Assembly: GCA_963836185.1 (NCBI GenBank)
Contig: CAWIIQ010000001.1
Coordinates: 1,056,001-1,120,000, forward strand
Origin: Candidatus Krumholzibacteriia bacterium
GTDB lineage: Bacteria > Krumholzibacteriota > Krumholzibacteriia > Krumholzibacteriales > Krumholzibacteriaceae
Length of the DNA stretch: 64,000 bases
Direction: 5' to 3'
Shown here: piece by piece, positions 32,889 through 54,530 of the stretch
Position numbering within the stretch: the stretch's first letter is position 1
How the letters are laid out: each line of letters starts with the position of its first letter
Program-made: the position numbers and the translations under genes
Notes under the pieces: generated by a model
Seen by the model: only the letters and a program-made list of their open reading frames with translations
What the model was told of the DNA's origin: nothing
The model's database searches: none

Positions 32889-35157
32889 ATGTCTTCGGCT
32901 CGTCTCGAACCACGGATTTCCAACAACGCTCTCAGAGTGCTCGAGAGAAGGTATCTGCGCAAGGACGTTAACGGAAATCTGACAGAGACGCCGGAAGAAC
33001 TCTTCCAGCGGGTCGCGGCGAATATCGCCTCGGCCGAGAGGCGTTACGGTGACAACAAGAACCGCCTGGGCTGGGAAGATACGTTCTATAACATGATGGC
33101 CACCCTCGATTTTCTGCCCAATTCGCCGACCCTGATGAACGCCGGCGCCGAGCTCCAGCAGCTCTCCGCCTGCTTCGTCCTTCCGATCGAGGACTCGATG
33201 GAGAGCATCTTCGAGACGATCAAGAACACGGCGCTGATCCACAAGAGCGGAGGAGGCACGGGATTCTCCTTCTCGCGCATCCGCCCGAGGAACGACCGGG
33301 TCAAGACGACCAAGGGCATCTCGAGCGGGCCGATCTCGTTCATGACGGTCTTCGACGCCGCCACCGAAACGGTAAAGCAGGGCGGCACGCGCAGGGGCGC
33401 CAACATGGCGATCCTTCGCGTCGACCATCCCGACATCCTCGATTTCATCACGGCGAAGAAGGACAACAGAAAACTCAACAACTTCAACATCTCGGTCGCC
33501 ATCACCGAGGAATTCATGGAGGCGGTCAAGGCTGACCGCGACTATGAGCTGATCAATCCGCACGGCGGCGATGTCGTCGACAAGATATCAGCGAAGAAGG
33601 TCTACCAGATGATCGTCGAGCTCGCGTGGAAGAACGGCGAGCCGGGGATCGTTTTCATAGACAGGCTCAACGAGGATAATCCGACGCCCAACGCGGGGAT
33701 GATAGAGAGCACGAATCCCTGCGGGGAGCAGCCGCTTCTTCCATACGAGTCGTGCAATCTCGGTTCGATAAACCTGTCGCACATGGTCACGGAAGACGGG
33801 CGACAAGTCGAAGATCGATTTCAACAAGCTCGGCGAGACGGTGCGCAGGGCGACGCGGTTTCTCGACAACGTGATCGACGTGAACCGCTACCCGCTCAGC
33901 CAGATCAAGGATCAGACACTTGCCAACCGCAAGATCGGCCTCGGCGTCATGGGATTCGCCGACGCTCTCGTCAGGATGGAGATCCCCTACGACTCGGAGG
34001 AGGCCCTCGAGGTCGCCGAAGAGATCATGGGATTCATCCAGCGCGAGTCGACCGCGACGAGCCTGGAGCTGGCCGAAGAAAGGGGAGCCTTCCCCAACTT
34101 CAAGGGCAGCAGGTTCGATACTGAGGATGCGCCGAAGCGCCGCAACGCGACGACGACGACGATCGCTCCGACCGGCACGCTGAGCATCATCGCCGGGTGC
34201 TCGAGCGGTGTCGAGCCTCTCTTCGCTGTAGCCTTCATCAGGCATGTCATGGACAACGATGAGCTCGTCGAGGTAAACCCGGTCTTCGAGGAGATCGCCC
34301 GCCGCGAGGGATTCTTCAGCGAAGAGCTGATGAAGAAGATCGCCGAGGAGGGGACCGTTCAGGGGATAGAGGAGATACCCGAGCATTGGCGGCGTATCTT
34401 CGTTACCGCGCATGATATCACGCCCGAGTGGCACATCCGGATCCAGGCAGCCTTCCAGAAATACACCGATAATGCCGTATCCAAGACGGTGAACTTTCCG
34501 AAGTCCGCCACTAAGGAAGACGTCGAATCAGTGTACATCAAGGCGTACGAGATGGGCTGCAAGGGCGTGACAATATACCGTGACGGAAGCCGTCAGGAGC
34601 AGGTCCTCAACATAGGCTCTGTCAACCGCGAGACCGAAGACGGCGAACTCGAGCTGGGCGATGATCTGGGCGGACTGCTCAAGCCGAGGCCGCGTCCCGA
34701 GGTGACGACCGGCAAGACCCACAAGATGACGACGGGCTGCGGAAACCTCTACGTGACGATCAACGAGGACGAGCACGGCCCGTTCGAGGTCTTCACGCAG
34801 ATGGGCAAGGCGGGCGGATGCTCCGCCTCGCAGTCGGAGGCGATCAGCCGGCTGATATCTCTTTCGCTGCGCGCCGGAATCGATCCGAAGCAGATCGTCA
34901 AGCAGCTCCGCGGGATCAGGTGCCCCAACCCGGGATGGGAGAAGGGCGGCATGATCCTCTCGTGCAGCGACGCGATCGCCAGGGCGATCGAGCGGTACTT
35001 CCTCGAGGAGAAGACCCCGGTCGGCCACAAGGTCACCAAGATGTCGGCGGGATACCTCGACAAGGTCGCCGGCTTCTGCCCCGACTGCGGCGGCGTGATG
35101 GAGCACGAGGGAGGCTGCGCGGTCTGCCGCGAATGCGGCTTCTCCAAGTGCGGCTAA
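32889..35157 (+). CDS. nrdJ: Class II (B12-dependent) ribonucleotide reductase with TSCPD/zinc-ribbon C-terminus; frameshift ~33805
   Basis: [34 protein letters not shown], terminal CxxC pairs. Confidence 0.93.
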
Positions 35158-35740: not shown

Positions 35741-35817
35741 TGACAGGAGGAAGGACAGGCGATAAAATATAGAAAATAATGCTCCGGTTGCCATGGGTGG
35801 GGAAAGGAAGTGACGAC

Positions 35818-36789
35818 GTGGGCAATCTAAGGGAAGCTATGCGCCGGGAGCTGCGGCTCCGCAACTACAGTCCGGGCACGATCAGGACATATCTTCAGCA
35901 CATGACAGAATTCACCAGGCACTTCGGCCGAAGTCCGTCCGAACTCGGCAGGGAAGAGATAAACTCCTACCTGCTCCACATGACGGAAGTAAGAAAGGTC
36001 TCCGCCACATACAGGGACCAGGCCATAAGCGCGCTGAAATTCTTCTACGGAAGGGTGCTGAAGAAACAGCTCATCATCGAAGAACTCCCACGTCCGAAGA
36101 AAGAATTCAAACTGCCGTCAGTGCTGAGCACAAAAGAAGTAGCTCGGCTCTTCCAGGCAGTCAGAAACCGGAAGCATCTCACCATCCTGATGCTCCTCTA
36201 TTCCGGTGGTATGAGAGTAAGCGAAGTAGTCAGGCTCAAACCTGAGGACATCGATCCAGAAAGACACCTTATCAGGGTGCGAGGGGGAAAGGGACGGAAG
36301 GACAGGTACACAGTCCTCTCGGATACGGCTCTCGATGTCCTCCGTGATTATTACCTGTCATGGAAGCCGGAATATTTTCTTTTTGAGGGAAACAGGAAAG
36401 GTTCTCATCTGTCGACAAGATCGGTCCAGAACGTCGTTTCAGCGGCCAGAAAGCGTGCCGGGCTGAAGAAGAAGTTCAGCACCCATGTTCTCAGGCACAG
36501 CTTCGCGACGCACCTCCTTGAAAGCGGCACCGATTTAAGGTATATTCAAGAACTACTGGGGCACAAAAGTGCCAGGACGACACAGATCTACACACATGTA
36601 ACACGGAGGGATATCGCACGGATCGTTAGCCCGCTGGACAGGATGATGGAGGGGGAAGCAGCGGCGACAGGACCGATCGGAACATCCGAACGGAAGAAAT
36701 CTCCCACCCACCCCACCCATTTTACTGAACGTCCTCGTCGCAAACGAACCAAAAACCGTCAAAACAACGAACCGGACACACACAAATAA
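35818..36789 (+). CDS. Tyrosine recombinase (integron-integrase-like N-terminal SAM domain; no IntI-specific insertion)
   Basis: Intact R(GMRVSE)-K(KGRKDR)-H-x-x-R(HVLRH)-H(LGH)-Y(TQIY); start GTG 35818 or ATG 35779/35839. Confidence 0.95.
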   Translation: MGNLREAMRRELRLRNYSPGTIRTYLQHMTEFTRHFGRSPSELGREEINSYLLHMTEVRKVSATYRDQAISALKFFYGRVLKKQLIIEELPRPKKEFKLPSVLSTKEVARLFQAVRNRKHLTILMLLYSGGMRVSEVVRLKPEDIDPERHLIRVRGGKGRKDRYTVLSDTALDVLRDYYLSWKPEYFLFEGNRKGSHLSTRSVQNVVSAARKRAGLKKKFSTHVLRHSFATHLLESGTDLRYIQELLGHKSARTTQIYTHVTRRDIARIVSPLDRMMEGEAAATGPIGTSERKKSPTHPTHFTERPRRKRTKNRQNNEPDTHK

Positions 36790-36809
36790 ACTGTTATATG
36801 ATAGCCGAG
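36770..36809 (+). other. attI-like primary recombination site (GTT at 36793)
   Basis: AAATAAACT-GTTATATGATAGCCGAG; right part is the reverse complement (16/17) of the end of cassette 1; no attC hairpin upstream. Confidence 0.75.
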
Positions 36810-36816
36810 AGAGGCT

Positions 36817-37230
36817 ATGAGAAAGAAATACCGTAAACTTTTCACGATACTATTAGTATCAGCGTTATTGGCTTCTTGTGAAGCCAACGATATTGGAAAG
36901 TGCACACATATCCCTGTCGAAGGAGTCGCAACAATTGTCACAGTCTGAAGAGCGTTCTGAATACCAGGATTGTGGTATGGGGGTTTTATTATACATCGAC
37001 CTGGCTCCCGATTGTCCAATTTACGCTGAAAGATTTCAATACAAAATACTCGACTTCTGACTTTGTACCCCAAAAGATGGGTCGAAGCCGTTGGCTTGAT
37101 AGAAGGATCTCAGCATAGGTGTATTTACTTTGCTAAGGGTGGTCCTTGTCCTAACTATATCGTTTGGGAAGATATAGACGTACAAAGCATTGAAGATTCA
37201 TGTACTGTGTGGGCTGCGGAATCACCATGA
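36817..37230 (+). CDS. Cassette 1: lipoprotein family B; frameshifted
   Basis: MRKK...LLASC lipobox; C-terminus PKRWVEAVGLIEGSQHRC...DSCTVW matches the 49236 and 52940 proteins. Confidence 0.7.
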
Positions 37231-37254
37231 TTGGGTTATGGGAGCTCGGCCATC

Positions 37255-37394
37255 ATATAACAGCAGTGTTCGCGGCTGCAGGCCTTCGGCCTTTCGCTCA
37301 GATGGCCTTTGTCACGGCGGCCGCAGGGCGACTGCCGCGCCAACCGGGCCTGGCGGCCCGGACGGCCACCTCGCGAACACGACCAATGTTATGT
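37255..37394 (+). repeat. attC-like site 1
   Basis: ATATAAC..GTGTTCGCG..CGCGAACAC..GTTATGT. Confidence 0.9.
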
Positions 37395-37420
37395 GACATG
37401 ACATTGAGATAGGAGGGGTA

Positions 37421-38016
37421 ATGAAAAGGCTATCTGCGGTCATATTCTTACTATTGCTGATGACGTCCGCTAGCGTACTTGCTGACTCGGTACAATTTAC
37501 CATACGAGTTCATCGAGACGTTGAGGATATCTCTGCGCTAGAGGTGAAAACCTTTGAGATCATTTCGGGGGGACTATTCCCAGAAACTGAACTAGAAACA
37601 GAGATGAAGGAGAAGATTCGAGCACGGATCGAGTCTACTGGATTAGTCTATGATCCTTCAAAGAAGGACCTCTTTGTTGGTGTTATCTTTGTTGGCTTCT
37701 CCGAGCATGGGAACAAGCTACCTGGATTGGAAGATTGGCCAAGTCAAACCCATGGATCTGTTGATTCAGCTTATGCGCTTCTAACTGCAGAATCTGAGAA
37801 TACAGAAGGGCAAGGTGCATGGAGGTCCATCCAAATCCACATTCTTGCACCACCTATCAGGAAGTTCCGGTTCGGATCTGGACGGGCTCGGTTACATACG
37901 ATGGATTAGAGACCGATACTGATAAACTGGCAAATGTGATGTTGGAACAATTACTTCTTGAATATCCCGTGCCATCTGGAAAGCCAGAGTTGCGAGAAGT
38001 GATATTAAGTGAATAG
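37421..38016 (+). CDS. Cassette 2: exported hypothetical protein; frameshift ~37850
   Basis: Signal peptide, AGGAGG RBS, continues in the 37819-38016 frame. Confidence 0.7.
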
Positions 38017-38033
38017 TGGAGGGGTGTCACGTC

Positions 38034-38173
38034 ACATAACAGAGTGTTCGCGGCTGCAGGCCTTCGGCCTTTCGCATAGATGGCCTTTGTCACGGCGGCC
38101 GCAGAAGCGCCCGCCGCGCCAACCGGGCCTGAGGGCCCGGACGGCCACCTCGCGAACACGACCAATGTTATTC
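38034..38173 (+). repeat. attC-like site 2
   Basis: Near-identical copy of the repeat. Confidence 0.9.
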
Positions 38174-38200
38174 GCCACCTAACCTTGCAAAGGAGATAAT

Positions 38201-38368
38201 GTGGATGTATTGAAAATGTTGCTTCCTTTCGGGATTGCCTTTTTAGTGTTCTTAGCTATAAGGGAAGTAATGTGCTGGTACTTCAGAATTAACAATATGC
38301 TCAATATGCTCAATAGTATTGATACCAGTTTAAAAAGAATGTCGGGAAGGACAGACAGTTCTTCTTAA
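38201..38368 (+). CDS. Cassette 3: 55-aa single-TM protein (not in ORF track)
   Basis: AGGAG RBS, GTG start, MDVLKMLLPFGIAFLVFLAIREVMCWYFRIN...; fills the cassette. Confidence 0.75.
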   Translation: MDVLKMLLPFGIAFLVFLAIREVMCWYFRINNMLNMLNSIDTSLKRMSGRTDSSS

Positions 38369-38399
38369 GACAATACAATTGATTTTACGGTTAGGCGGC

Positions 38400-38539
38400 G
38401 TATAACAGTGTGTTCGCGGCTGCAGGCCTTCGGCCTTTCGCTAAGATGGCCTTTGTCACGGCGGCCGCTAGAGCGCCCGCCGCGCCAACCGGGCCTGGCG
38501 GCCCGGACGGCCACCTCGCGAACACGACCAATGTTATCT
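38400..38539 (+). repeat. attC-like site 3
   Basis: Near-identical copy. Confidence 0.9.
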
Positions 38540-38617
38540 GAAACCACACCTTATCGTGGTATAATTCAGCGTTGCGTGGATTCTGGCCACAAGACACTGT
38601 GCCCCAAGGATGATGAG

Positions 38618-40555
38618 ATGAAGAGCAAGAACCTCACAAGAGTACTGATCGCCTGCCTATTTATCATGATCTCTAACGAAATATCTGCTCAATGGTATGA
38701 CTTGGGGAATCCTGTGTTCATTGACCCGGGGATGTTTCAGGACACACACATTTCTTACGATGGCAATGGAGGCCTGTTCTTTACGTGGTGCGATTGGAGA
38801 AACGGGGGAGCCCCTTATCAGGCGGATGTCTATGCACAATATGTGAATGCTGACGGAATAGCACAATTCGGACTGTCGGGGATGCCAATCGATACGATCA
38901 GCGGCAATCAGTACAAGGCTAATGTTTCATATGTGGGAGGGGATTGCGCGGTGATTGTATGGTCGGACCTGATGGATGGATATAAATTGCGAGCTCAGCG
39001 CATTAATTCCGAAGGAATGGTATTCTGGGGAGACAGAGGTGTGGATGTATCAGAACAGTCAGGAATGGGAGAAGTCGCATCAGTGATTCCAGATATTAAT
39101 GGAGGAGCCATAATATCCTGGAGAAATTTTTATGTTTGGATTCAACGGCTGGATTCACTGGGCAATCGGATGTGGGGGGAGGACGGAATAAGAATTAACA
39201 ATATTGGGGACACTGTTGGCAGTGCTCCTGCAATTGTGAGTGATGGGGCGGGAGGCGCAATAATCGTATGGTCAGACTATCGCTCTGGGAGCATGACGCA
39301 TGACATATATGCTCAACGTGTTAACTCAAACGGGGATGAGTTATGGACAGACGGGGGATTGCCGATTAACAACAATGAAGGAGCTCAAACTCAACCCTCA
39401 ATAGTGTTTGACGGAAATAACTCCTTTATCAGTTGGTTTAACAATACATGGGACATCGGTGTTCAGAAAATAGATCACGATGGTAATCTCTTATGGAATG
39501 TTAATGGAGTATATATTAGTCCAATAGAGCCCAGACCTAAGTATCGAGCCATGGCTGCCGATAATCATGGAGGTGTGATTGCCGCTTGGGAAGATTTTAG
39601 GAATACGAGTTCAACTGAATCTGATATTTACGCTCAGCGGATTCGCTCAGATGGGGAGATTGCATGGGATATAGATGGTATTGCGATTTACATTGGTGGA
39701 GGGGATCATCAACAGCCAGCAATTTCTACCACATCATCAGGCGATGCTATCATTGTTTGGACTAATTATTATGGAATTTACGCACAACGAGTGGATACCA
39801 GCGGAGCAATATATTGGCCAGAATACGGTGAAAACATTTCAAGAGGGCCAGGGTGCCAACACTGGCCACTTATCCAGAACATCGATGACAAAGAATTATT
39901 CGTTGTGTGGAATAAGAATGAGAATGATGCATGTTATGGAAACGACGATTTATATGTTCAAAAGATTGATCTTGAAGGACACATTGTAGGCACATTTCTA
40001 GATCAGGCCGAATGGTATTGTGTCTCTGATGAAATATGTTTGAAATGGTCGATTGTCTTATCCGCAAATAATCTTGAATTCATTATACTGCGCACATTAA
40101 GCGGAGAGCATAAGTACAGAGAAGTTGGCCGGATTATTGGATTCGAACGTCAATCCGAATTTTGCTATATTGATAGCACATGTAAACTTGGGGAAAAGTA
40201 CATATATCGTGTTATCGCTTCCATGGAAGATGATGAGATGTTGCTTTTTGAAACTACAACAATCCTGATGCCAAATCTAAAGTATGTTCTTCATCAGAAT
40301 TATCCGAATCCGTTCAATCCAATAACCAAAATCTCATACAGTCTGCCAAAACAGTGCATCGTCAGCTTAAAGATATACGATATTATGGGAAAAGAGATTG
40401 TATGCCTTGTTAACAATCAATTGCAGCAAGGTGAACAGGTAATACATTGGGATGGTAAAAACCACTTCGGAGATCTTGTTTCTTCCGGAACATATTTTTG
40501 CAAGCTTTTTGCTGGAAAACAGACAAAAGTAATTAAATTGATATGTCTGAGATGA
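38618..40555 (+). CDS. Cassette 4: secreted repeat (propeller-like) protein with FlgD/T9SS-like C-terminal domain
   Basis: Repeated DG.GGAIIVW.D.R..DIYAQR units; QNYPNPFNP; signal peptide. Confidence 0.85.
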   Translation: MKSKNLTRVLIACLFIMISNEISAQWYDLGNPVFIDPGMFQDTHISYDGNGGLFFTWCDWRNGGAPYQADVYAQYVNADGIAQFGLSGMPIDTISGNQYKANVSYVGGDCAVIVWSDLMDGYKLRAQRINSEGMVFWGDRGVDVSEQSGMGEVASVIPDINGGAIISWRNFYVWIQRLDSLGNRMWGEDGIRINNIGDTVGSAPAIVSDGAGGAIIVWSDYRSGSMTHDIYAQRVNSNGDELWTDGGLPINNNEGAQTQPSIVFDGNNSFISWFNNTWDIGVQKIDHDGNLLWNVNGVYISPIEPRPKYRAMAADNHGGVIAAWEDFRNTSSTESDIYAQRIRSDGEIAWDIDGIAIYIGGGDHQQPAISTTSSGDAIIVWTNYYGIYAQRVDTSGAIYWPEYGENISRGPGCQHWPLIQNIDDKELFVVWNKNENDACYGNDDLYVQKIDLEGHIVGTFLDQAEWYCVSDEICLKWSIVLSANNLEFIILRTLSGEHKYREVGRIIGFERQSEFCYIDSTCKLGEKYIYRVIASMEDDEMLLFETTTILMPNLKYVLHQNYPNPFNPITKISYSLPKQCIVSLKIYDIMGKEIVCLVNNQLQQGEQVIHWDGKNHFGDLVSSGTYFCKLFAGKQTKVIKLICLR

Positions 40556-40602
40556 TTATATACTCAATTTGAGCACTATACTTATAAGTCAGGTGTGGCT
40601 TC

Positions 40603-40742
40603 AGATAACAGAGTGTTCGCGGCTACAGGCCTTCGGCCCTTCGCTCAGATGGCCTTTGTCACGGCGGCCGCTAGAGCGCCCGCCGCGCCAACCGGGCCTG
40701 GCGGCCCGGACGGCCACCTCGCGAACACGACCAATGTTATCC
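40603..40742 (+). repeat. attC-like site 4
   Basis: Near-identical copy. Confidence 0.9.
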
Positions 40743-40777
40743 GACATCTTATTGAAGCTTAAAGAGGTGAAATTGCT

Positions 40778-41409
40778 ATGAAAATGATGAAGCCAATTGT
40801 TGTTCTGATAGTACTGATACTCCTGTTCTCGGTCGCAAAGTATGTCAGAGTTCAAGCATTTCATATTAGAAAGTGAGAGCAAGGTTGAGCTTCCTAATTA
40901 TTTTTATGATGACCTAGAGCCATACGTTACAACAATAGATCGCCAGCATTCTGACAAAGAGGATGATTCGCCTTGCTGAATCTGTTTATCCACCAAGAAG
41001 GAAGATGCTTGAGAAGCATCCAGGTTTGCCAGAAGAAATGGTAGCAGATTCACTGTGGGTGGCTGAAGAGCACGGCGATTTAAAAATACCCTACACACTA
41101 ACTGCGAGTGCAGTTCGGTACTATATTGATCTGATGAAGAGGTACGAAAAGAAGGACGAAACGCTCGATAGTATCCCGAAAAATGCAAAGTTAACATATA
41201 AAGCAGACATGCACGGTCCATCAACTTTCATTATTAATGGTGAATTGTATGAAAATGTTAAGGTTGTAACCCTTGAGTTAAGCTGGTCCACCTATACTAA
41301 TGCTTTGAATGCTGGAGGATTCAGTATTGTCAAGTTTGTGATTTTCGACAGGGAGAAGAATATTCTGGGTGTGTTTGGGGATGGATTCCCTGGAGAATGG
41401 GCGTCATGA
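40778..41409 (+). CDS. Cassette 5: exported hypothetical protein; frameshifted
   Basis: GAGGTG RBS, signal-like start at 40778, main ORF 40963-41409. Confidence 0.6.
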
Positions 41410-41437
41410 ACATTGGGAATATCCAATAGAAGACGTC

Positions 41438-41576
41438 GGATAACAGAGTGTTCGCGGCTGCAGGCCTTCGGCCTTCGCTCAGATGGCCTTTGTCACGGCG
41501 GCCGCTGGAGCGCCCGCCGCGCCAACCGGGCCTGGCGGCCCGGACGGCCACCTCGCGAACACGACCAATGTTATTC
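41438..41576 (+). repeat. attC-like site 5
   Basis: Near-identical copy. Confidence 0.9.
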
Positions 41577-41999
41577 GCCATGTGGCAGATGAATAAATTT
41601 AACTTCGATTTCTTCTTATTTTTTAGGACTCTTCTTTCCCCGCAGTACAGCCCCATCCAGCCTCAGGGTGACTTCCGGAGTCTCTAAAGCCTGATCGATC
41701 CAGTACCTCATATTTTCTCCGATGTTAAGGCCTAGACTCGTGCCGTAACGGGCCTGAGGGTGGCTTGCGGCTGAGACTGAGATCCTCGATCCTGAGGTTT
41801 TAAGGGGCCGAGATTGGTAGGGGAGAGCTCGTAAGGAACTTGCTTTCAACGATCGGGGCAATTCAGCGTACGACTTCGGGTCGCGCTGTCGCATCTTTAT
41901 CAGCCAAGGGTTGGCTGAAAGACTATTGAACCGGAGAGATTAAAGGATTAGATTTATAGGTGAGGGGTGATCTAGTATGAATTCCACACGGCGTATAAC
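41570..41999 (+). other. Cassette 6: near ORF-less cassette, homologous to cassette 8
   Basis: Bounded by matching inverted ends; shares sequence blocks with 45214-45645. Confidence 0.8.
41926..41954 (+). promoter_or_regulatory. Sigma-70-like promoter in cassette 6
   Basis: TTGAAC-N17-TAGATT, conserved in cassette 8. Confidence 0.65.
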
Positions 42000-42106
42000 A
42001 GAGGTGTTCGCGGCTGCGCATGTCACCCGGCCTGCAGAGCACGCCGGGCGCCAATGCTTCGCGTACACCGCCTGCGGCGGCGTCGCGAACACTCACAATG
42101 TTATAC
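41993..42106 (+). repeat. attC-like site 6 (divergent interior)
   Basis: Same ends and GTGTTCGCG/CGCGAACAC stem, different loop. Confidence 0.85.
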
Positions 42107-42125
42107 GATAAATGCCCTTATTCCT

Positions 42126-42155
42126 TTGACATATTCAATTCTACATAGATAGAAT
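42126..42155 (+). promoter_or_regulatory. Cassette-borne promoter of the kinase gene
   Basis: TTGACA-N18-TAGAAT, 8 nt before ATG, no RBS. Confidence 0.55.
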
Positions 42156-42163
42156 CTCCATAC

Positions 42164-45062
42164 ATGTTAGGGGAAACAATCTCACATTATGAAATTCTCG
42201 AGAAGCTCGGCGAGGGCGGGATGGGCGTAGTCTACCGCGCCCGTGACACGAAGCTCGACCGCGAGGTGGCTATCAAGCTCCTGCCCCCGCACCTGAGCTC
42301 CGATCCCGAGGCGGTAAAGAGGTTCGTCCATGAGGCGAAGACCGCCTCGGCCCTGAACCACTCCGCTATAGGCGTCATCCACGAGATAGACGAGACGGAT
42401 GACGGCCAGACGTTCATCGCAATGGCCCTCTACGAGGGGGGACTCTCAGGGAGAAGCATCGACAGCGGCAGCATGACATCTAGGCGAAGCAGTAACCATA
42501 GCCTCCCAGATAGCCTCGGGTCTCGACCAGGGCCCACGAGAAGGGGATAGTCCACAGGGACATCAAGCCGCAGAACATACTTCTGACCAGAGACGGCGAG
42601 GCGAAGATAATCGACTTCGGCCTAGCGAAGCTCGCCGGAAGGACGAAGCTGACGAGGGACGGGAGTACGCTCGGCACTGCCGCCTACATGTCCCCCGAGC
42701 AGGCGAGGGGAGAAGAGGTCGATCACCGTTCGGACATCTTCTCTCTCGGGACGATCCTGTACGAGATGCTCGCCGGTGAGCCACCATTCAAGGGGGAGCA
42801 CGAGGCGGCGTTGCTCTACGGGATAGTGCACGAGGAGCATGAAGAGATATCGGAGAAGTGCGGGGGCATAGCACCGGAATTGTGCAATGTGGTCGGAAAG
42901 ACGCTGAAGAAGGAAAAGGAAGCAAGGTATCAGAACGCGGCGGACCTGAAAGCTGAATTGAAGAGGTCGAGCACCGGCAGTGTCGATGAGGGCGGACCGA
43001 GGGATACGAAGGACGCTGGAAGAGGTAAAGGGTTCTGGATAGGCATTGCGGCGGTCACCGTGACACTCACAACTGCCGTACTTCTCGTAATGACCGGACG
43101 TGAGCCGGCGCCGCTTACCGCTTCGGAGATGACTCTCGCTGTGGTTGATTTTAATGACCTAGCAACAGAACCGGATCCTATAAAATCCAAGACGATTACA
43201 GAGCTGCTAAATACCTCCCTGGGAGATTTCTGTCCGATACGCGTTCAGAGCCCGGAACGAGTAAGGGAATGTCGAAGACAGCTTTTCGGTTCAACTGAAG
43301 CGCAGATAGAGGAAGGGCAGGAACTGGAGATCGCGCGCAGGAGCGAAGCGACCTATTTGCTTACTGGCAGCATCAGTGTCGTTGGCAACGACGGTTTTAT
43401 CTCTTGGAGGCTCATAGATGTACTAAGTGGGACTATCATCAAGGCCGGAACAGTCGAACCAGGTGAGATGATGGCAGTAGTTGATAAGATCGTGGAGGTC
43501 GTATTGCCGGAGATCGCAGAAGCTTCGGGAGTTGAGCAGACTGCAGAGCAGGTTTCCGTGGCACAATCTCGACATCTTCACAGCAGGCGTTTGAGCATTA
43601 CGTTAGGGGTAAGATAAATCATGACAGCGATCGTCCAGTCGAAGCACTCGATGAATACACGAAAGCTGTCGGATTAGATTCCAGTTTTGCTCTTGCCTGG
43701 TTTGCTATGTCTAGACTCTACTATGGTGCCATGATGATTAGGTATGATCCGGCACTTTATAATAAATACAATGAGCTTGCCTTAAGGTATGAATCCAGGA
43801 TGGGCACCAAGGAGAGGATGCAGCTTCGTGCTATTAATCTTGGAGGAGTCAAAACGATAGAAAAACTCAAGGAAATCCTCGAGCTCTGGCCTGATGACCG
43901 CGAGACGCTGCAGATGCTCGTCCTCAGAACCCACTATAATTGGATGCAAAAAGAATGTATCGAGTACTCTCGAATCGGATTGACGCTATACCCGGAAGAC
44001 CAGGTTTTCGGAGGAAGTATCTATATCACATCTCTTAATAATTTGGGTCTAAGCCAAGAAGCGATGAAGGCGTCCAGAGAATTTATCAGAAAATATCCTG
44101 ACGATTCGGCAGCTTGGCGTTCTCTTGCCGAGACATTTGTGGTCATGGGGCAACCGGACAGTGCCGAGGCGATCTGCAGAATAATTTTGGAGAAATATCC
44201 TGAAGGCAGCCAGAATGCAGAGGCAAGGCGGATGATAGCACGATGTGCATATCTTGCAGGCGATCTAGATGAATCGATTTCAAGGTATGATAGATTATTG
44301 TCAGACGCGAACCTGGATGAATCTACTCGTCAGGAGATTCTTTCTAACTATACTCACATTATAGATCTTACTTATGTATATCGAGAAGCTGGCCGCTACT
44401 ACGACGCCTTGCGGACCTTGAATGAGGCAAGACCGTACTTCGGCAACCGACCTGATCGCTGGGAATTACAAATGGGCTATCTGCTAGTAGATATTGGCAG
44501 GAACAAGAATGCGTTGAAACTCGCTGAAGAGATGCTTGCATCAGATAATATGCCAATGCAGAGGTATGCCAGACGATTCATGGGCAAGGCGCAAGTTAAT
44601 AATGGTGATATCCAAGGTGCTCAGGAAACTGTATCGATACTGGATGGACTTGGCATAGTCAGGGGACCTATCTACAAGTACCATTCATTTTTCACTCAGG
44701 CATATATTGCATTGGCAAGGAATGATGCTTCAGTGTCTCTAAAGCATCTTGATGATGCGGCCCAGATAGTGGGCTTCTCATACTGCATGTTCGGAATCGA
44801 GCTGAAGACATTGCAGGCGGAGGCGAACAGACTGGCAGGGGACCTGGAGGCGGCAGCCTCGATCCATGAAGAACTGCTGAGGATTCATGGCGGACATGCA
44901 TTGTCACACTTCGAACTCGGTAAACTGTATGAGGCAATGAGAAGAACGGACGAGGCAAAACTGCACTATAATAGATTCCTAGAGATGTGGAATAACGCTG
45001 ATGATGGATTACCTCAACCTGCACTCGCGAGGGAGAGACTGACAGCGCTTAAAGGTGTTTAA
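42164..45062 (+). CDS. Cassette 7: Hanks-type Ser/Thr kinase-TM-TPR protein; several frameshifts
   Basis: [38 protein letters not shown]-terminus. Confidence 0.85.
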
Positions 45063-45081
45063 ATAGAGCAGGGCTTTCATC

Positions 45082-45220
45082 GCATAACAGTGTGTTCGCG
45101 GCTACAGGCCTTCGGCCCTTCGCTCAGATGGCCTTTGTCACGGCAGCCGCAGGGCGACTGCCGCGCCAACCGGGCCTTGAGGCCCGGACGGCCACCTCGC
45201 GAACACGACCAATGTTATCC
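45082..45220 (+). repeat. attC-like site 7
   Basis: Near-identical copy. Confidence 0.9.
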
Positions 45221-45645
45221 GCTATGTGGCAGCTGATTGAATTTATCTTCGATCTTTTCTTTTTATTGGGACCCTTCTTCCCGCCCATCCCAACCATTAC
45301 CAGCCGGAGGTCGACTTCCGAGAGTCTCTAGAGCTAGTTCTGCAAGGTGACGAGTCCAACCCCTGTAAGAATAATGCCTCTATAGATGATCCGGCCTGAG
45401 GGTGGCTTGCGAGGCGCGACTGAGATCCTCGGGTCAAGAGGCTTTAAGGGCCGAAATAGGGGTAGGGGAGCGATCGTCAGGGACTTGCTATCATCGGTCT
45501 GAGGCAGGTTCATCTCTCGACTTCGGGAGGCGCAGTCGCAGTTCTATCAACGGGTCAACGCCGAAAGACTATTGAAAGTTCGAGATTAACGGTATAGATT
45601 TAGAGGTGAGGGGTGCCTATATATGAATTCCACACAGCGGATAAC
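45214..45645 (+). other. Cassette 8: near ORF-less cassette, homologous to cassette 6
   Basis: Ends GTTATCCGCTATGTGG / CCACACAGCGGATAAC; shared blocks with cassette 6. Confidence 0.8.
45572..45600 (+). promoter_or_regulatory. Sigma-70-like promoter in cassette 8
   Basis: TTGAAA-N17-TAGATT. Confidence 0.65.
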
Positions 45646-45767
45646 AGCAGTGTTCGCGGCTACGGGCCTTGAGGCCCTCGCTCAGATGGCCTTTACCGGC
45701 CTTTGGCGCGCCGGCCAACCGGGCCTGAGGCCCGACGACCAACTCGTTAACATGACCACTGTTATGG
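45639..45767 (+). repeat. attC-like site 8 (degenerate right arm)
   Basis: Left arm canonical; right arm CTCGTTAACATGACCACTGTTAT. Confidence 0.75.
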
Positions 45768-46291
45768 AGGGACGTTTTAGAAAATGTAACATACGAATCA
45801 TTCTGGTTGTTCTCGTCTTAACTTCAGCTCTTATATCCTGTGGAGAGGATAGCTGTGAGTGCCCTACACCTAATCCTATTGAATACACCAGCGTTGTGTT
45901 CTACTACAAAGATCATCCATATTGCTATTCAAGTACTGCTGGATTAGAGGTAGAGCTTTATGTCGGTGATGAACTCATAGGGTATTGGCATTATGGCTCT
46001 AATCCAGCAGATCCAAATCTAGATTATCCTAATTCGCAACCTTTTCCGGTTGAGCTCGGAAGTGCCTTGAACCTTGAATTCAGGTATTGGGATAAATCAG
46101 GTCATGAGATGAGAGACACAGCAAATCTCATCATGGATGATGAAGATTGCACTTACGTCAGTTTCTTTGCCGACATAGAAAATCCCTGCCTGGGTGCTGA
46201 GTTATGTGATAGTTGTATTGTTTTTGAGATCGATGAAAACATGAAGTGTGAGGGTGCTGATTCAATCTATGTCGCTGTAGTGACTAATTGA
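45764..46291 (+). CDS. Cassette 9: Cys-rich lipoprotein
   Basis: LISC lipobox; start uncertain. Confidence 0.7.
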   Translation: MEGRFRKCNIRIILVVLVLTSALISCGEDSCECPTPNPIEYTSVVFYYKDHPYCYSSTAGLEVELYVGDELIGYWHYGSNPADPNLDYPNSQPFPVELGSALNLEFRYWDKSGHEMRDTANLIMDDEDCTYVSFFADIENPCLGAELCDSCIVFEIDENMKCEGADSIYVAVVTN

Positions 46292-46304
46292 TGGAGACAG
46301 CGGC

Positions 46305-46445
46305 ATATAACAGTGTGTTCGCGGCTACGGGCCTTGCGGCCCTTCGCTCAGATGGCCTTTGTCACGGCGGCCGCAGAAGCGCCCGCCGCGCCAACCGGGC
46401 CTGGCGGCCCGGACGGCCACCTCGCGAACACGACCAATGTTATCC
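46305..46445 (+). repeat. attC-like site 9
   Basis: Near-identical copy. Confidence 0.9.
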
Positions 46446-46461
46446 GCAAGCGTATTATGAT

Positions 46462-46857
46462 ATGAACAAGTTCCCAGCAATATTTTTTTTGTCACTCCTT
46501 CTGGCTTCCTGCCGAGATCCTTTCGCGCATGAATGGGAAAACTTATATCAGCTCAGCGCAGATCAGATTATTCTACCCGATACTGCTCAAATATTTCAAC
46601 CGATGCAGGTCAAAGTGCAGGTTACTTTAGATACATCTAATCATAATTACAAAGACCAATATATCGAAACAACACCAGATGGCTATCTGATAGTGCTGAT
46701 TGGTGTAATAGAAGATACGAGATTTCCAGATAATGACCCGGATCCCAGAACAGAATGGCATTCTTTTAACCTTATCCCATTTAAGAAAGGAGAAGTAATC
46801 ATTGAGGGGAAACGAGTCAATTCAGAGAATCTTATTGATTCAGTGTATGTTCAGTAG
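46462..46857 (+). CDS. Cassette 10: lipoprotein family A
   Basis: LASC lipobox; PDT, EWHSF, DSVYV motifs. Confidence 0.8.
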   Translation: MNKFPAIFFLSLLLASCRDPFAHEWENLYQLSADQIILPDTAQIFQPMQVKVQVTLDTSNHNYKDQYIETTPDGYLIVLIGVIEDTRFPDNDPDPRTEWHSFNLIPFKKGEVIIEGKRVNSENLIDSVYVQ

Positions 46858-46870
46858 TGGGCACGCCTGC

Positions 46871-47010
46871 GCATAACAGAGTGTTCGCGGCTACGGCCTT
46901 CGGCCTTTCGCTCAGATGGCCTTTGTCACGGCGGCCGCTGGAGCGCCCGCCGCGCCAACCGGACTTGGCGGCCCCGGACGGCCACCTCGAAAACACGACC
47001 AACGTTATAC
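46871..47010 (+). repeat. attC-like site 10
   Basis: Near-identical copy. Confidence 0.9.
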
Positions 47011-47039
47011 GAAAGGCCGGGAAGCGATAAAAAAGAACC

Positions 47040-47075
47040 TTGACAGATATGCATATATGATGCATACTGATGCAT
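47040..47075 (+). promoter_or_regulatory. vapBC promoter/operator
   Basis: TTGACA-N17-CATACT overlapped by three ATGCAT palindromes. Confidence 0.65.
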
Positions 47076-47271
47076 ATGAGAACTACACTGAATATTGACG
47101 ATGATCTGATTCGCAAGGCAGCGAAGATGACAGGGATCAGCGAGAAGACTTCCCTGGTACGCCTCGGGCTTGAAGCATTGATCGCTCTTGAGAGCGCGAG
47201 AAGGCTAGCAGCTCTTGGCGGCACAGAGAAAGATCTTGGCCCTGATTCCTCGCAAACGAACGAGTTCGTGA
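47076..47271 (+). CDS. vapB: Cassette 11: VapB antitoxin (RHH type)
   Basis: MRTTLNIDDDL..EKTSLVRLGLEALI; apparent +1 indel fuses it to vapC. Confidence 0.85.
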
Positions 47272-47273
47272 GT

Positions 47274-47630
47274 ATGATCCTGGCTGATACATCTGTATGG
47301 ATCGATCATCTTCGCAATGGAAACAAGCGGATGGCTCTTTTTCTGAACGAAGGTGTCGTTTTGTGTCATCCTTTCATACTCGGGGAATTGGCCTGTGGGA
47401 ACCTCAAAAACAGAGCTAAAATACTCGATATGCTTGCTTCCCTTCCGACAATGCCAGTTGCAGAGCACAGTGAAGTGCTTGATTTCATTTCCCGATACAA
47501 ATTCCAAGGGAAGGGTATAGGGTGGATCGATGCCCATCTGTTGGCATCAACATTTCTGGCGAAAAGCCGAATCTGGACTCTCGACAAATCTTTACTAAAG
47601 ATAGCAAAAGACCTGAAGGTCTCAATATAG
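47274..47630 (+). CDS. vapC: Cassette 11: VapC PIN-domain toxin
   Basis: MILADTSVWIDHL, GELACG, IDAHLLAS, WTLDK. Confidence 0.9.
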   Translation: MILADTSVWIDHLRNGNKRMALFLNEGVVLCHPFILGELACGNLKNRAKILDMLASLPTMPVAEHSEVLDFISRYKFQGKGIGWIDAHLLASTFLAKSRIWTLDKSLLKIAKDLKVSI

Positions 47631-47662
47631 GGCAATCAAAAGGTTTAGTAGCCGGCCACTTC

Positions 47663-47803
47663 GTATAACAGAGTGTTCGCGGCTGCGGGCCTTGCGGCCC
47701 TTCGCTCAGATGGCCTTTGTCACGGCGGCCGCAGGAGCACCCGCCGCGCCAACCGGGCCTGGCGGCCCGGACGGCCACCTCGCGAACACGACCAATGTTA
47801 TCC
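47663..47803 (+). repeat. attC-like site 11
   Basis: Near-identical copy. Confidence 0.9.
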
Positions 47804-47820
47804 GAAAGCGCGGGATATGT

Positions 47821-48202
47821 ATGAATAAAAAAATCGCATTATCGATCCCATTACTTCTTGTAGTTGCATGTAATCTATTCAAGCCACCTGAAAAGATACA
47901 AACATGGGCTGATGTCGAACAGATTGTTGTTCCTGATACTGTTGACTATTTCGAAGCTTTCGAGATCAGCGCTGAAATTTCAATGGACCATACATGTAAG
48001 TATGTAGGTCCTGTGCTGGAAGAAACTTCTGAGGGCTGCTCCATTACCATTATCGTTGAATCTGTGGAAGTGAGCTTTCATGAAAAGGATATTTCTGAGT
48101 GGCATACCTTTACTCTGAGACCTCTCGAATTGGGATCTTACATCATCAGGGTGAAAAGTAAGAATGTGGAAGATTCTTGTTGATTCAACTTACGTTCGTT
48201 AG
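47821..48202 (+). CDS. Cassette 12: lipoprotein family A; probable frameshift near the 3' end
   Basis: VVAC lipobox; VEQIVVPDT, EWHTF; LVDSTYVR in the adjacent frame. Confidence 0.75.
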
Positions 48203-48212
48203 ATGCGCCATC

Positions 48213-48353
48213 GGATAACAGTGTGTTCGCGGCTACAGGCCTTGCGGCCTTTCGCTCAGATGGCCTTTGTCACGGCGGCCGCAGGAGCGCCCGCCGCGCC
48301 AACCGGGCCTGGGGGCCCGGACGGCCACCTCGCGAACACGACCAATGTTATGC
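48213..48353 (+). repeat. attC-like site 12
   Basis: Near-identical copy. Confidence 0.9.
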
Positions 48354-48369
48354 GAAGGCGAGGGGAACA

Positions 48370-48759
48370 ATGAAATTAGCGGTTGGAATAATTGCAATTA
48401 TCGTTATTTGCTCTTCCTGCGAAGATCCACCAGTAAAAGTATGTGACCGACCAGTAATGTTGGAAGTAGAACAGTTGATGGCTCCGGATTCTTGCAGGTT
48501 AGGTGAGCAGGCACAATTACAAGTCGAAGTAATTCTTAACGGTTCAAGTTATAGTTATTTCGGCCCCGACATTAACGACACAGATTCGGGTTGTAGAATA
48601 AGGATTATGGGAGAAAAAGATGAATGTGCACTTAACACTCCTTGCATTTGCTACGAGTGGCATTCGTTTGTTATTTCCCCCTCACAAACGGGAATATACA
48701 TAATAGAGATAATTAATTCTCAAGCTGATGATTTAGCGGATACAATAACAGTGTATTAG
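48370..48759 (+). CDS. Cassette 13: lipoprotein family A
   Basis: CSSC lipobox-like; VEQLMAPDS, EWHSF, DTITVY. Confidence 0.8.
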   Translation: MKLAVGIIAIIVICSSCEDPPVKVCDRPVMLEVEQLMAPDSCRLGEQAQLQVEVILNGSSYSYFGPDINDTDSGCRIRIMGEKDECALNTPCICYEWHSFVISPSQTGIYIIEIINSQADDLADTITVY

Positions 48760-48769
48760 CTGTGCCATC

Positions 48770-48908
48770 GGATAACAGAGTGTTCGCGGCTGCAGGCCTT
48801 CGGCCTTTCGCTCAGATGGCCTTTGTCACGACAGCCGCAGGGCGACTGCCGCGCTAACCGGGCCTGGCGGCCCGGACGGCCACCTCGCGAACACGACCAA
48901 TGTTATGT
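48770..48908 (+). repeat. attC-like site 13
   Basis: Near-identical copy. Confidence 0.9.
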
Positions 48909-48935
48909 GCAATGCTGTGCATTAATTTAAAGGGG

Positions 48936-49100
48936 ATGAAGTTGAAGAAACTATCTCTGATCATCGGAATTCTCGCATTAGCCGTTGCAATAATCATCTT
49001 CATATATGCTTCTGGTGCTAGGCGAATTTATAGCGGCCTCTTATTTATATTGATAGCTATCATCCAATTCACTTTTGCTCTTCGAAAAGGTGATAAATGA
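48936..49100 (+). CDS. Cassette 14: small two-TM protein
   Basis: Two hydrophobic helices; fills the cassette. Confidence 0.75.
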   Translation: MKLKKLSLIIGILALAVAIIIFIYASGARRIYSGLLFILIAIIQFTFALRKGDK

Positions 49101-49116
49101 TCAATAAGGGCACTGC

Positions 49117-49189
49117 ACATAACAGAGTGTTCGCGGCTGCGGGCCTTGCGGCCCGGACGGCCATCTCGCGAACACGACCAACGTTATGC
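49117..49189 (+). repeat. attC-like site 14 (short, internal deletion)
   Basis: 73 bp; both arms intact, central ~67 bp missing. Confidence 0.85.
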
Positions 49190-49235
49190 GAAAAGCCGCA
49201 GACGTTAAAACCTACCCCTGGGAGGAGATGATGTG

Positions 49236-49692
49236 ATGTTGAAATCAGGAATGTTCATCATTGCCGCTGTTTTTTTTATTCTCGCTCCTTATTTCTTGTG
49301 AGGATGAAGAAGGCATCATTTGTGGGGGAGAGTGCCTTTATCATGAGATACCAGGCACAGCATCTATTATTTCTGTTACTGATATTGATGGATCTACCTA
49401 TTGTGGAGATCCTGTCGAGGTGATTTACAACTTTACTCCAGATGATCCAAGCGATATTGATCCAGACTATTTGACGATTTGGCCACTCGATAATATTTAC
49501 TACAAGATAGGTCAAAACAATCCGCCACGAAGATGGGTTGAAACGCATGGACTTCTGGCAGGAACAGACCATCCATGTACAAGATTTAGGATTTACAAGG
49601 GATCTTGTGTGCCTGTTGGATACAATTTTGATGGCATAGATGATTACAGTGTCTCTGATTCATGTGATGTATGGGAGCAAGAGATACCATAA
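49236..49692 (+). CDS. Cassette 15: lipoprotein family B; poly-T frameshift near the start
   Basis: GGAGGAG RBS; LISC lipobox; GTASIISV, FTPDDPS, PPRRWV, DSCDVW. Confidence 0.75.
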
Positions 49693-49716
49693 GTAAACTT
49701 GATTACTGCGACCACC

Positions 49717-49847
49717 GCATAACAGAGGCATTTGCGTACTCGCCTGGCTTCGCCAGAACTAGGCTGTCACGGCCGTTGCAATTTGAGTGCATGATGATAG
49801 ATAAATAGGGGATTGCGGCTGCGCCGCGAATGCTCACAATGTTATAC
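49717..49847 (+). repeat. attC-like site 15 (divergent, compensated stem)
   Basis: GCATAACAGAG-GCATTTGCG...CGCGAATGC-TCACAATGTTATAC. Confidence 0.8.
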
Positions 49848-49875
49848 GGCATGCAGTTCATGGCAGGGGAATAAA

Positions 49876-50418
49876 TTGATCCATATAGTATTTGATCTCG
49901 AAGCTACCTGCTGGGAACAGGGCACAACGCCGAGTCGAATGGAAATTATTGAAATTGGGGCCACAAGGCTGCACCCTGATACATACGAAATCGATAGTGT
50001 GTTCTCTACCTTTGTGCGACCTGTCGAGGAACCTGAGCTAAGCGACTTCTGCAAGAACCTAACATCCATCCAACAAACTGACGTCGATCTTGCGCCTGTT
50101 TTTCCCGAGGCGATGGATATGTTCTTTGCCTGGATTGATGCTAGTGAAGTTACCTTTTATTCCTGGGGCTACTATGATATCAAGCAGATCCGAATGGATT
50201 ACCAGCGTCATGGAAATTCTGAGCCGGCGGCATTCAGTAGCCACGTTAATTTGAAGAAGCTATTTTCTGAGATCTATGGCAGGAAGCCTTGTGGAATGCG
50301 GAAGGCTCTAAATATACTTGGGTTGGGGCATGAAGGGACGCATCATAGGGGTGTGGATGATGCAAAGAACATTTCCAGGATCGCTAAAGTAATTCTTCCG
50401 GAATATTATGGCTCCTGA
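49876..50418 (+). CDS. Cassette 16: DEDDh 3'-5' exonuclease (ERI-1/KapD-like)
   Basis: FDLEATC, EIIEIGA, LTSI, SWGYYD, HHRGVDDA. Confidence 0.88.
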   Translation: MIHIVFDLEATCWEQGTTPSRMEIIEIGATRLHPDTYEIDSVFSTFVRPVEEPELSDFCKNLTSIQQTDVDLAPVFPEAMDMFFAWIDASEVTFYSWGYYDIKQIRMDYQRHGNSEPAAFSSHVNLKKLFSEIYGRKPCGMRKALNILGLGHEGTHHRGVDDAKNISRIAKVILPEYYGS

Positions 50419-50465
50419 AGACCTGAGTATTGGGGAACTGGACTTTGAATAGGTGGCTGCACGCC

Positions 50466-50525
50466 GGATAACAGTGTGTTCGCGGCTGCAGGCTCAGGCG
50501 GCCACCTCGCGAGCATAAGCAATTG
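50466..50525 (+). repeat. attC-like site 16 (eroded, terminal)
   Basis: GGATAACAGTGTGTTCGCGG...CACCTCGCGAGCAT, no GTTA. Confidence 0.75.
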
Positions 50526-50639: not shown

Positions 50640-52859
<2,220 letters not shown>

Positions 52860-52939
52860 AAGGAAAGATTAAGGTATCGATTAGTTTAATAGATGCTCAT
52901 GAGGTCAGGAAAATCCTAAATCTCTTTCAGGAGAGGGGT

Positions 52940-53362
52940 ATGAAAGAATTCTATGTAATTGTCTTTTGTGGCTTAATCCTGCCATTTATACCTTCCTGTG
53001 GTTGTGATTCCATGCAGGTCGAAGGAACAGCCAAGATTCTTTCTGTTACAGTGATAGATACCCTGACAGAATGTGGTGGTCTGGCTGAAGTGCGTTTTGA
53101 TTTTATTCCAGATGATCCGTCGATGACTCAGGAAACCAGATTGAGCATGTACCAGACGACAGATGTAAAGTGGAGAGTGCTGTATTACGAGTATCCCCCG
53201 AAGAAATGGTTGGATTTAGTCGGTGTAACTGAGGGATCTGAGCAAAGATGCAGTTTTGAGTGCTATTGGGGTGGAGGTTGTGGAGGATGGAACTGGGATT
53301 TCCTCGATGTCTCTGAGGAGTCAGCGATCGATTCATGTGAGGTATGGGAGGGAGAGGAGTAG
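52940..53362 (+). CDS. Lipoprotein family B member outside the array
   Basis: GTAKILSV, FIPDDPS, PPKKWL, DSCEVW. Confidence 0.75.
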   Translation: MKEFYVIVFCGLILPFIPSCGCDSMQVEGTAKILSVTVIDTLTECGGLAEVRFDFIPDDPSMTQETRLSMYQTTDVKWRVLYYEYPPKKWLDLVGVTEGSEQRCSFECYWGGGCGGWNWDFLDVSEESAIDSCEVWEGEE

Positions 53363-53365
53363 GGC

Positions 53366-53782
53366 TTGTTTAAAATCGTAGTAGTTTTCATCTTATTCGT
53401 TACTCTTTTTCCCGGATGTTCTGAGGAGAGTGTAGCTCCTGAACCAGGGGGCGCTATTGACGATCCTTGCAGAGGGAACAATCCTCCTGCAATTGAAGCT
53501 CTGCCTGACACATTCGTAGCACTCGGTGATACGATCTGGCTGTACGCCGTCGGGCACGATCCTGATCATGACGAGATTCATTTCCTCAGCAGCTGCAACA
53601 ATATAACATGGGCACAATTGCAGTCTGGAGATCTGCCGATATTTGGAGTAAACGCTAAAACAGGAGTGTTCAGATTTGTGCCGCGATCTTACGATGATCC
53701 CTACAGGGTATTCGAGGTCTGGGCCGCGGATTCCTGTGACGCTATTAATTCCTCGGAATTCACTATTCAAGTTACGCAATAG
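53366..53782 (+). CDS. Lipoprotein with Ig/cadherin-like region
   Basis: FPGC lipobox-like; NNPP, DPDHD motifs. Confidence 0.7.
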   Translation: MFKIVVVFILFVTLFPGCSEESVAPEPGGAIDDPCRGNNPPAIEALPDTFVALGDTIWLYAVGHDPDHDEIHFLSSCNNITWAQLQSGDLPIFGVNAKTGVFRFVPRSYDDPYRVFEVWAADSCDAINSSEFTIQVTQ

Positions 53783-54476: not shown

Positions 54477-54530
54477 ACACCAGTCATATTCAATGCTTAT
54501 AATGCTGTCCGTTATACTAGCGGAGGTTAT

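Follow-up and report, generated by a model that had tools for sequence, protein, structure and literature searches.

An array of sixteen cassettes behind an insertion-less recombinase in Krumholzibacteriota: a candidate second class of integron

Can gene cassettes be collected and shuffled in integron fashion by an enzyme without the I2 insertion, at sites without extrahelical bases? The question is raised by a 64,000-nucleotide stretch of the genome of a Candidatus Krumholzibacteriia bacterium (assembly GCA_963836185.1, contig CAWIIQ010000001.1; hereafter 'the window'), in which a tyrosine recombinase gene is followed by sixteen cassettes, each ending in a palindromic site. The array works like an integron but we do not file it as a classical one, because it fails on precisely those two defining features. 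Several things are observed directly here, namely an attI-like platform site, cassettes whose two ends belong together, shuffling between genomes with the junction in or beside GTT, a site geometry of its own, and the segregation of site types with enzyme types. Our explanation, to which we would give a probability of roughly 0.7, is that this is a second class of integron, whose I2-less enzyme would recombine folded bottom strands by a single exchange that replication then resolves; that the short enzyme is the catalyst of cassette movement seems to us, from the sequence comparisons below, very probable indeed. The initial annotation, made from the letters alone, had proposed a distinct cassette system tied to an insertion-less recombinase, and this holds up well, given the overlap of attI with the recombinase gene, the shuffling between genomes and a site geometry that does not overlap with the canonical one.

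What sort of enzyme is it? The open reading frame (ORF) spans 35779-36789 and is open from an ATG at 35779, with GTG 35818 as the likely start, and it is co-oriented with the array. Its PF13495 and PF00589 domains both score above cut-off, and the catalytic motifs are present and invariant across the alignment. It passes NF040815, a profile whose name includes integron integrases (244.8, cut-off 220), and falls below TIGR02249 (230.9, cut-off 265). The best match in the PDB, by sequence and by fold, is VchIntIA (2a3v), to which the recombinase aligns with a 42-residue gap at I2, its residues 190-208 lying over VchIntIA residues 179-239; an AlphaFold model of middling quality (predicted local distance difference test, pLDDT, 75.5; predicted template modelling score, pTM, 0.54) adds little to this alignment. 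The protein is 41-42 amino acids (aa) shorter than IntI, at the I2 insertion, and the spacing from K to HxxR is 69 aa in all 17 close relatives and 66-69 in 11 distant ones, compared with 110-111 in five canonical IntI and 66-82 in 64 Xer-type proteins, so that the absence of the insertion, as first annotated, is confirmed. Short enzymes and IntI have an SP tail in common. The ratio of non-synonymous to synonymous substitution rates (dN/dS) of 0.10-0.14 against four congeners, with three more distant pairs near or past saturation, indicates that the gene is under purifying selection. Close homologs are labelled Ca. Krumholzibacteriota at source, and presence within the family is patchy (13 of 24 genomes), with an upstream ribonucleotide reductase or flavin reductase gene common to 12 of 16 relatives.

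In a tree built without the I2 region, canonical IntI form one clade (100/100) and Xer proteins another (100/100), and the array-bearing short enzymes lie outside both; our main tree holds 38 rows of our own choosing, and a quick tree 66. Support for placing canonical IntI with the Krumholzibacteriota enzymes is only 85/83, and an approximately unbiased test does not reject a monophyletic group of short enzymes (p = 0.36). One gain of I2 on the canonical stem would be the simplest reading, and the short enzymes may be either the sister group or the source of canonical IntI. There is also a neighbouring I2-less clade without the SP tail (L018, L019, L135-L140), at whose loci no attI or sites were detected.

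And what lies behind the enzyme? There are fifteen complete sites and a degenerate last one, whose right end has decayed; they lie from 37258 to 50520, every one of them on the + strand. The annotated picture of sixteen segments, each closed by a repeat of about 140 bp, is therefore right in number and too uniform in length: from TAAC to GTTA, 11 of the 16 sites measure 133-135 bp and the remaining five 108, 123, 67, 125 and about 52 bp. The ends are as first read, with ATAAC at the left of all 16 sites and GTTAT at the start of all 16 cassettes. The elements are as follows.

35818..36789, + strand: I2-less IntI-like tyrosine recombinase, PF13495 + PF00589, IntI-type SPLD tail
36777..36804, + strand: attI-like platform site, overlapping the recombinase stop codon
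36793..37391, + strand: cassette 1, lipoprotein-like ORF, split in assembly; site 1 at 37258-37391
37388..38170, + strand: cassette 2, 162-aa secreted-type ORF; site 2 at 38037-38170
38167..38536, + strand: cassette 3, small membrane ORF; site 3 at 38403-38536
38533..40739, + strand: cassette 4, 645-aa protein with C-terminal FlgD/Por-tail domain; site 4 at 40606-40739
40736..41573, + strand: cassette 5, ORF without assigned function; site 5 at 41441-41573
41570..42103, + strand: cassette 6, gene-less, candidate promoter cassette; site 6 at 41996-42103
42100..45217, + strand: cassette 7, Ser/Thr kinase-TPR gene, in three frames in the assembly; promoter-like match 42126-42155; site 7 at 45085-45217
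45214..45764, + strand: cassette 8, gene-less, 72% identical to its paralog, cassette 6; promoter-like match at 45572-45600; site 8, decayed, at 45642-45764
45761..46442, + strand: cassette 9, lipoprotein-like ORF, own start and end unpaired; site 9 at 46308-46442
46439..47007, + strand: cassette 10, lipoprotein-like ORF; site 10 at 46874-47007
47004..47800, + strand: cassette 11, VapBC toxin-antitoxin pair; promoter-like match 47040-47068; site 11 at 47666-47800
47797..48350, + strand: cassette 12, lipoprotein-like ORF; site 12 at 48216-48350
48347..48905, + strand: cassette 13, lipoprotein-like ORF; site 13 at 48773-48905
48902..49186, + strand: cassette 14, small membrane ORF; short site 14 at 49120-49186 (67 bp)
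49183..49844, + strand: cassette 15, lipoprotein-like ORF; divergent site 15 at 49720-49844
49841..50520, + strand: cassette 16, DEDDh exonuclease (PF00929); degenerate site 16 at 50469-~50520

Four marks, all inside the site, separate it from canonical attC: no base is extrahelical, the loop is asymmetric, the outer arm is long and position 11 is a wobble pair. Each site opens with AAC and a spacer of 3-4 nt, then has a 9-bp stem whose two strands enclose a loop of variable length, and closes with 7 nt and GTT; the stem varies in sequence among relatives while its pairing is kept, and site lengths run from 67 to 174 bp. Canonical sites have one or more extrahelical bases on the R''-L'' arm and a central spacer of 5/5-6 nt; here the base in question has a pairing partner, and the R'-side spacer is longer. 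On the canonical layout none of the 15 complete window sites scores above 2/7 and none of 23 sites from relatives above 3/7. Conversely, 103 canonical sites, taken from a single genus (eight genomes) and one Vibrio, never exceed 4/7 when scored on the new layout. Because the control and relative sets had each been picked on their own layouts, only these cross-scores count. A strict fold-based detector that we also ran overlooked even Vibrio attC sites, and its blanks carry no weight.

Pairing of a cassette's own ends reaches about position 17-18 in the window, compared with 12 in canonical cassettes, and makes an outer arm of 15-18 bp. Within it, position 11 forms a bottom-strand G·T pair in 14 of the 16 cassettes of the window and in 18 of 25 cassettes from 10 related loci (hand-picked after an arm-identity filter, with three added as neighbours, a bias that favours long arms and not the wobble), as against 3 of the 76 canonical cassettes, another five of the 76 having the reverse orientation; a top-strand wobble at this position is found in 0 of 52 new-type pairs. 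The right arm holds A here in 14 of 16 cases and the left arm C in 16 of 16, and with the letters themselves held constant, hybrid sites within the array have the wobble too. When circular sites are reconstituted, it is the bottom strand that folds better in 14 of 15.

Other features that might have been thought diagnostic turn out not to be. The GTTAT ends, offered at first as a mark of the class, are a trait of the lineage, since many Flavobacteriaceae cassettes begin with GTTG and 3 of 76 canonical cassettes begin with GTTAT. Co-orientation of enzyme and array fails in the same role: it is reported for Treponema integrons (PMC4889954, PMC3607928), it is seen in a canonical integron of this very genome, and in Flavobacteriaceae the I2-less arrays run with the enzyme gene in some cases and diverge from it in others. 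We also considered a 'dif-like 6-bp centre' and rejected it, the left arm (AAC + 5 nt + NTTNNNG) being alike in canonical attC and the new sites.

Do the cassettes move? The first one begins at the G of GTT, at 36793, four bases past the recombinase stop codon. In 21 of 21 related loci, positions 2, 3 and 7 of attI's left arm are T, T and G (a count that leaves out three, two at a contig edge and one in genome G018 with a hairpin insert), and related loci with this conserved attI begin with different first cassettes. In the G018 locus itself (L027, G018:C40), a hairpin-rich insert and a site-like 67-bp element replace the usual attI spacing right behind the recombinase, before the first cassette. 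Reordered arrays, which the initial annotation had suggested looking for, do occur in relatives (G001-G006, G027), where the same cassettes stand at other positions. For example, the gene-less cassette found here at positions 6 and 8 comes first in G001, G004 and G005, a homolog of cassette 10 comes first in G002, and the VapBC cassette, 11th here, is 4th in G006, last in G003 and present also in G027; a contig of run X2 parts from the window at 36797, where it passes to the beginning of cassette 8. Comparison of sister genomes places the junctions of relocated cassettes in or beside GTT, and since G027 holds two cassettes that start with GTTAG and GTTGG, we infer a crossover in or just before GTT. 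The unity of each cassette is also plain from its ends: a cassette's end matches its own start at a mean of 8.9 of 13 positions and the next cassette's start at 4.9 of 13, and the own-end score of 143 was reached by none of 100,000 permutations.

How might such a system work? On folding, the bottom strand would form three parts: an outer arm, a loop with unequal sides of 3-4 and 7 nt, and an inner stem of 9 bp, all of them paired. A tetramer of the enzyme would then exchange a single strand at GTT, with this hairpin as one partner and either double-stranded attI or another site as the other, leaving a junction for replication to resolve. The 3-4 extra bases on the cut strand may block a second exchange, which is the role of I2 and the extrahelical bases in classical integrons, and the pair at position 11, which is G·T on the bottom and C·A on the top strand, may pick the strand, so that genes keep one orientation; wobble and loop asymmetry are thus our candidates for the strand cue. 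A site without extrahelical bases is plausible but needs some such cue, because the Vibrio cholerae repeat (VCR) stripped of these bases reportedly drops only 6.2-fold in bottom-strand recombination and loses strand choice, with the unpaired spacer essential (PMC2727003), and because CTX phage integrates through XerCD as a hairpin that has none (PMC4792948, PMC5357621).

Might the same I2-less enzyme take another route, acting on an extruded cruciform or on double-stranded DNA with two exchanges, or cleaving the top strand? We think this unlikely, although the catalytic domain is Xer-sized, the 15-18-bp inverted repeats at cassette ends could act as ordinary binding arms, and IntI1 is reported to retain two-exchange activity on double-stranded attI (PMC4792948). 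However, the arms lie 60-170 bp apart at variable spacing, which gives no single double-stranded site without folding, and both the better folding of the bottom strand and the restriction of the wobble to that strand speak for the folded bottom strand. A second exchange on a hairpin would, moreover, linearise the replicon (PMC7790495).

A further question is whether another enzyme does the work, as this genome also contains a canonical integron on the same chromosome; the idea that it has no canonical IntI, which we entertained, had to be rejected. The canonical intI lies at C1:2072034-2072864, about 980 kb from the window array, scores 418 bits (over the TIGR02249 cut-off) and is frameshifted near its 5' end in the assembly; behind it, and co-oriented, are at least four canonical attC sites and no new-type site (C1:2060000-2073100). 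Canonical IntI also occur in G065 and G027 besides the window genome (G000), with pieces in G006, and IntI1 is reported still to recombine sites without extrahelical bases (PMC2727003), so one could suppose that the array is an attC cluster on which this integrase acts in trans, with the I2-less gene a bystander or former partner. We consider that quite improbable. The two site types do not mix: all 15 complete sites by the short enzyme are of the new type and all four by the canonical intI are canonical, and in G006 and G027 canonical sites likewise stand behind canonical intI. In addition, attI overlaps the 3' end of the short gene, that gene is under purifying selection, and in the six Flavobacteriaceae genomes with new sites that we checked, no canonical IntI scored over the cut-off.

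Those Flavobacteriaceae bear equally on the idea that the host's own XerC and XerD, whose genes are present elsewhere in this genome, recombine the sites as they do for CTX phage or pdif modules, the neighbouring recombinase being accessory. XerCD hairpin integration of the CTX type is reported to need no I2 (PMC5357621). The chance of this strikes us as slighter still. An I2-less enzyme occurs in 28 of 61 Flavobacteriaceae genomes, and at 13 of 18 loci there are sites with the same asymmetry; a scan with a motif tuned on G186 found 26 sites in 0.28 Mb by the short enzymes, as against one in the 1.02 Mb around 64 XerC/D loci and 0.2 in shuffles. Of 11 adjacent pairs there and in G186, with only the loop used to set orientation, nine carry the wobble on the bottom strand and no pair carries it the other way round. 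The outer arms presumably resemble dif half-sites, but the arm consensus differs between the Krumholzibacteriota and Flavobacteriaceae enzyme lineages, and the platform site is fixed to the short gene. As for a local tandem or repetitive extragenic palindromic (REP)-like family without recombination, the high identity of the site copies and their stable hairpins would suit it, but own-end pairing, the conserved attI, confinement to the array and GTT-junction shuffling, which already contradicts it, leave it next to no credence.

That confinement also bears on a point the initial annotation had raised, which was repeats scattered genome-wide independently of the recombinase. No match to a profile of the 15 complete sites lies outside the array at E < 0.8 in this 3.50-Mb, 6-contig genome, and, among other genomes, the window repeat is present in 12 of the 20 that have a recombinase match and in 2 of the 20 that have none, both exceptions being at contig ends. 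The stray copies that we read are contig-end pieces, save for a second cluster in G027.

Of course, a number of points weigh against a second integron class. No recombination activity, circular cassette or cleaved strand was observed, the runs being assembled contigs, which cannot show circles. I2 is reported to be essential for cassette capture by IntI1 (PMC7790495), and this genome's canonical IntI might act in trans, even though its 5' part is frameshifted in the assembly. Cassettes 9 and 15 match their own ends at just 4 of 13 positions each; the second G027 cluster (L238, G027:C1:336000-340700) holds at least three new-type sites on a separate contig, with no recombinase within the 8 kb read; and the set of canonical controls is narrow, at one genus and one Vibrio. 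No sites were detected at 5 of the 18 Flavobacteriaceae loci, and 11 distant I2-less loci gave one clear array, one lone site and nine with none detected, some with short flanks. In a Firmicutes metagenome-assembled genome, a single hairpin site with AAC/GTT ends (L035, 10869-10951) lies 22 nt behind an I2-less recombinase.

Where, then, does the system stand among known ones? It is most like the sedentary chromosomal integrons (VchIntIA, and the co-oriented Treponema type), with which it shares PF13495 + PF00589, the SPLD tail, an adjoining attI, AAC/GTT ends, promoter-poor co-oriented cassettes, a toxin-antitoxin cassette, gene-less cassettes and a fixed chromosomal place. It differs from them in having no I2, no extrahelical base in the L stem, an R'-side spacer 3-4 nt longer than R'', an outer arm paired to about 17-18 rather than 12, a fixed bottom-strand G·T at position 11 and a score below the TIGR02249 cut-off. 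A folded single-strand site without extrahelical bases, an I2-less enzyme and a single exchange resolved by replication, which we propose here, are known from integrative mobile elements that make use of Xer recombination (IMEX) of the CTX phage type (PMC4792948, PMC5357621); unlike the phage, the present system encodes its own enzyme and platform site and has arrays of unrelated genes with apparent reshuffling. XerC, XerD and XerA share the Xer-sized catalytic domain, and XerA structures are the second-best PDB matches, but the short enzymes form no part of the Xer clade (100/100), lack the HPR tail and are patchy in their presence. Smyshlyaev et al. 2021 (PMC8138268) noted members without the insertion in an 'integron-like' subgroup of tyrosine recombinases, and the portions of that paper drawn on here assign these members no cassette arrays or site anatomy. 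Archaeal integrons are reported to possess the additional domain (10.1101/2022.02.06.479319). With non-canonical sites and an attI that overlaps an intact recombinase gene, the array is not one of the attC clusters without an integron integrase (CALIN) either. We found no description of I2-less cassette arrays in a literature search that covered neither subscription journals nor supplements.

The cargo was described at first as mostly AT-rich and one gene per unit, and as including a toxin-antitoxin pair. The first and last parts are correct (45% guanine plus cytosine, GC, versus 59% upstream; VapBC in cassette 11), while the middle one breaks down at cassettes 6 and 8, in which no ORF is conserved between copies. 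Domain matches identify a FlgD/Por-tail protein, the kinase-TPR gene, VapBC (VapB and a PIN domain) and the DEDDh exonuclease, the last being the sole match when PADLOC was run on 11 cassette proteins. Split or fused frames at 32889-35157, 36817-37230, 42164-45062 and 47070-47630 affect even a housekeeping ribonucleotide reductase, and VapB and VapC share one frame; these are likely assembly indels, and pseudogene calls in the window are therefore unsafe.

The gene-less cassettes likely supply promoters, and promoter cassettes have been described in classical integrons (PMC6557892; 10.1101/2023.11.21.568050). All four copies of this family, which in the window covers 41570-41999 and 45214-45645, have a -35/-10-like pair 17 nt apart, a purine-rich run like a ribosome site and an ATG near the 3' end, but the evidence is weak because the whole cassette is 83% conserved. 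Promoter-consensus matches number 32, versus 20.2 +/- 4.4 in shuffles, one of them spanning attI, and these are consensus matches only. The near-site ATG of cassette 8 opens a frame through the site into the cassette 9 gene (45623-46291). A structured RNA in cassettes 6 and 8, which we also considered, is unsupported, the consensus fold gaining little from covariation (-1.12 kcal/mol) and having no Rfam match; Rfam gave no matches at all at E <= 1, a result that says nothing on attC.

Two further observations concern genes outside the array. On contig C3, at about 208600-211574, there is a paralog of the cassette 7 kinase-TPR gene (42100-45084), 84% identical over 830 nt with the promoter included, which matches from the cassette's third base and has no site at its 3' end; it is either a cassette inserted at a secondary site or the cassette's source gene. 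Past katG, from 52847 to 64000, come short, co-oriented, mostly secreted or lipoprotein-type genes of lower GC and without sites, possibly ex-cassettes stripped of their sites; genes of a similar kind come after the arrays in G001, G002 and G006.

What would all this mean? The I2 helix and the extrahelical bases are regarded as the innovation that defines integrons, and how the two arose together is a recognised chicken-and-egg problem (PMC4792948); a natural enzyme-site pair that lacks both makes the question of origin testable, and here both systems sit side by side in one genome. The broadest version of the idea, which we hold tentatively and at slightly less than even odds, is a widespread second integron class, spanning at least Krumholzibacteriota and Bacteroidota, without I2 or extrahelical bases, reading loop asymmetry and a G·T wobble instead, representing the ancestral state before I2 and invisible to standard surveys. 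A large reservoir of gene capture may thus be uncounted, because integrons are reported to be rare in surveys of Bacteroidetes (PMC9024848), and yet nearly half of the Flavobacteriaceae genomes examined have the enzyme and most of their loci have sites. The resistance genes reported beside a 'XerD' in Chryseobacterium (PMC11194056) would, for this reason, be worth re-reading as candidates.

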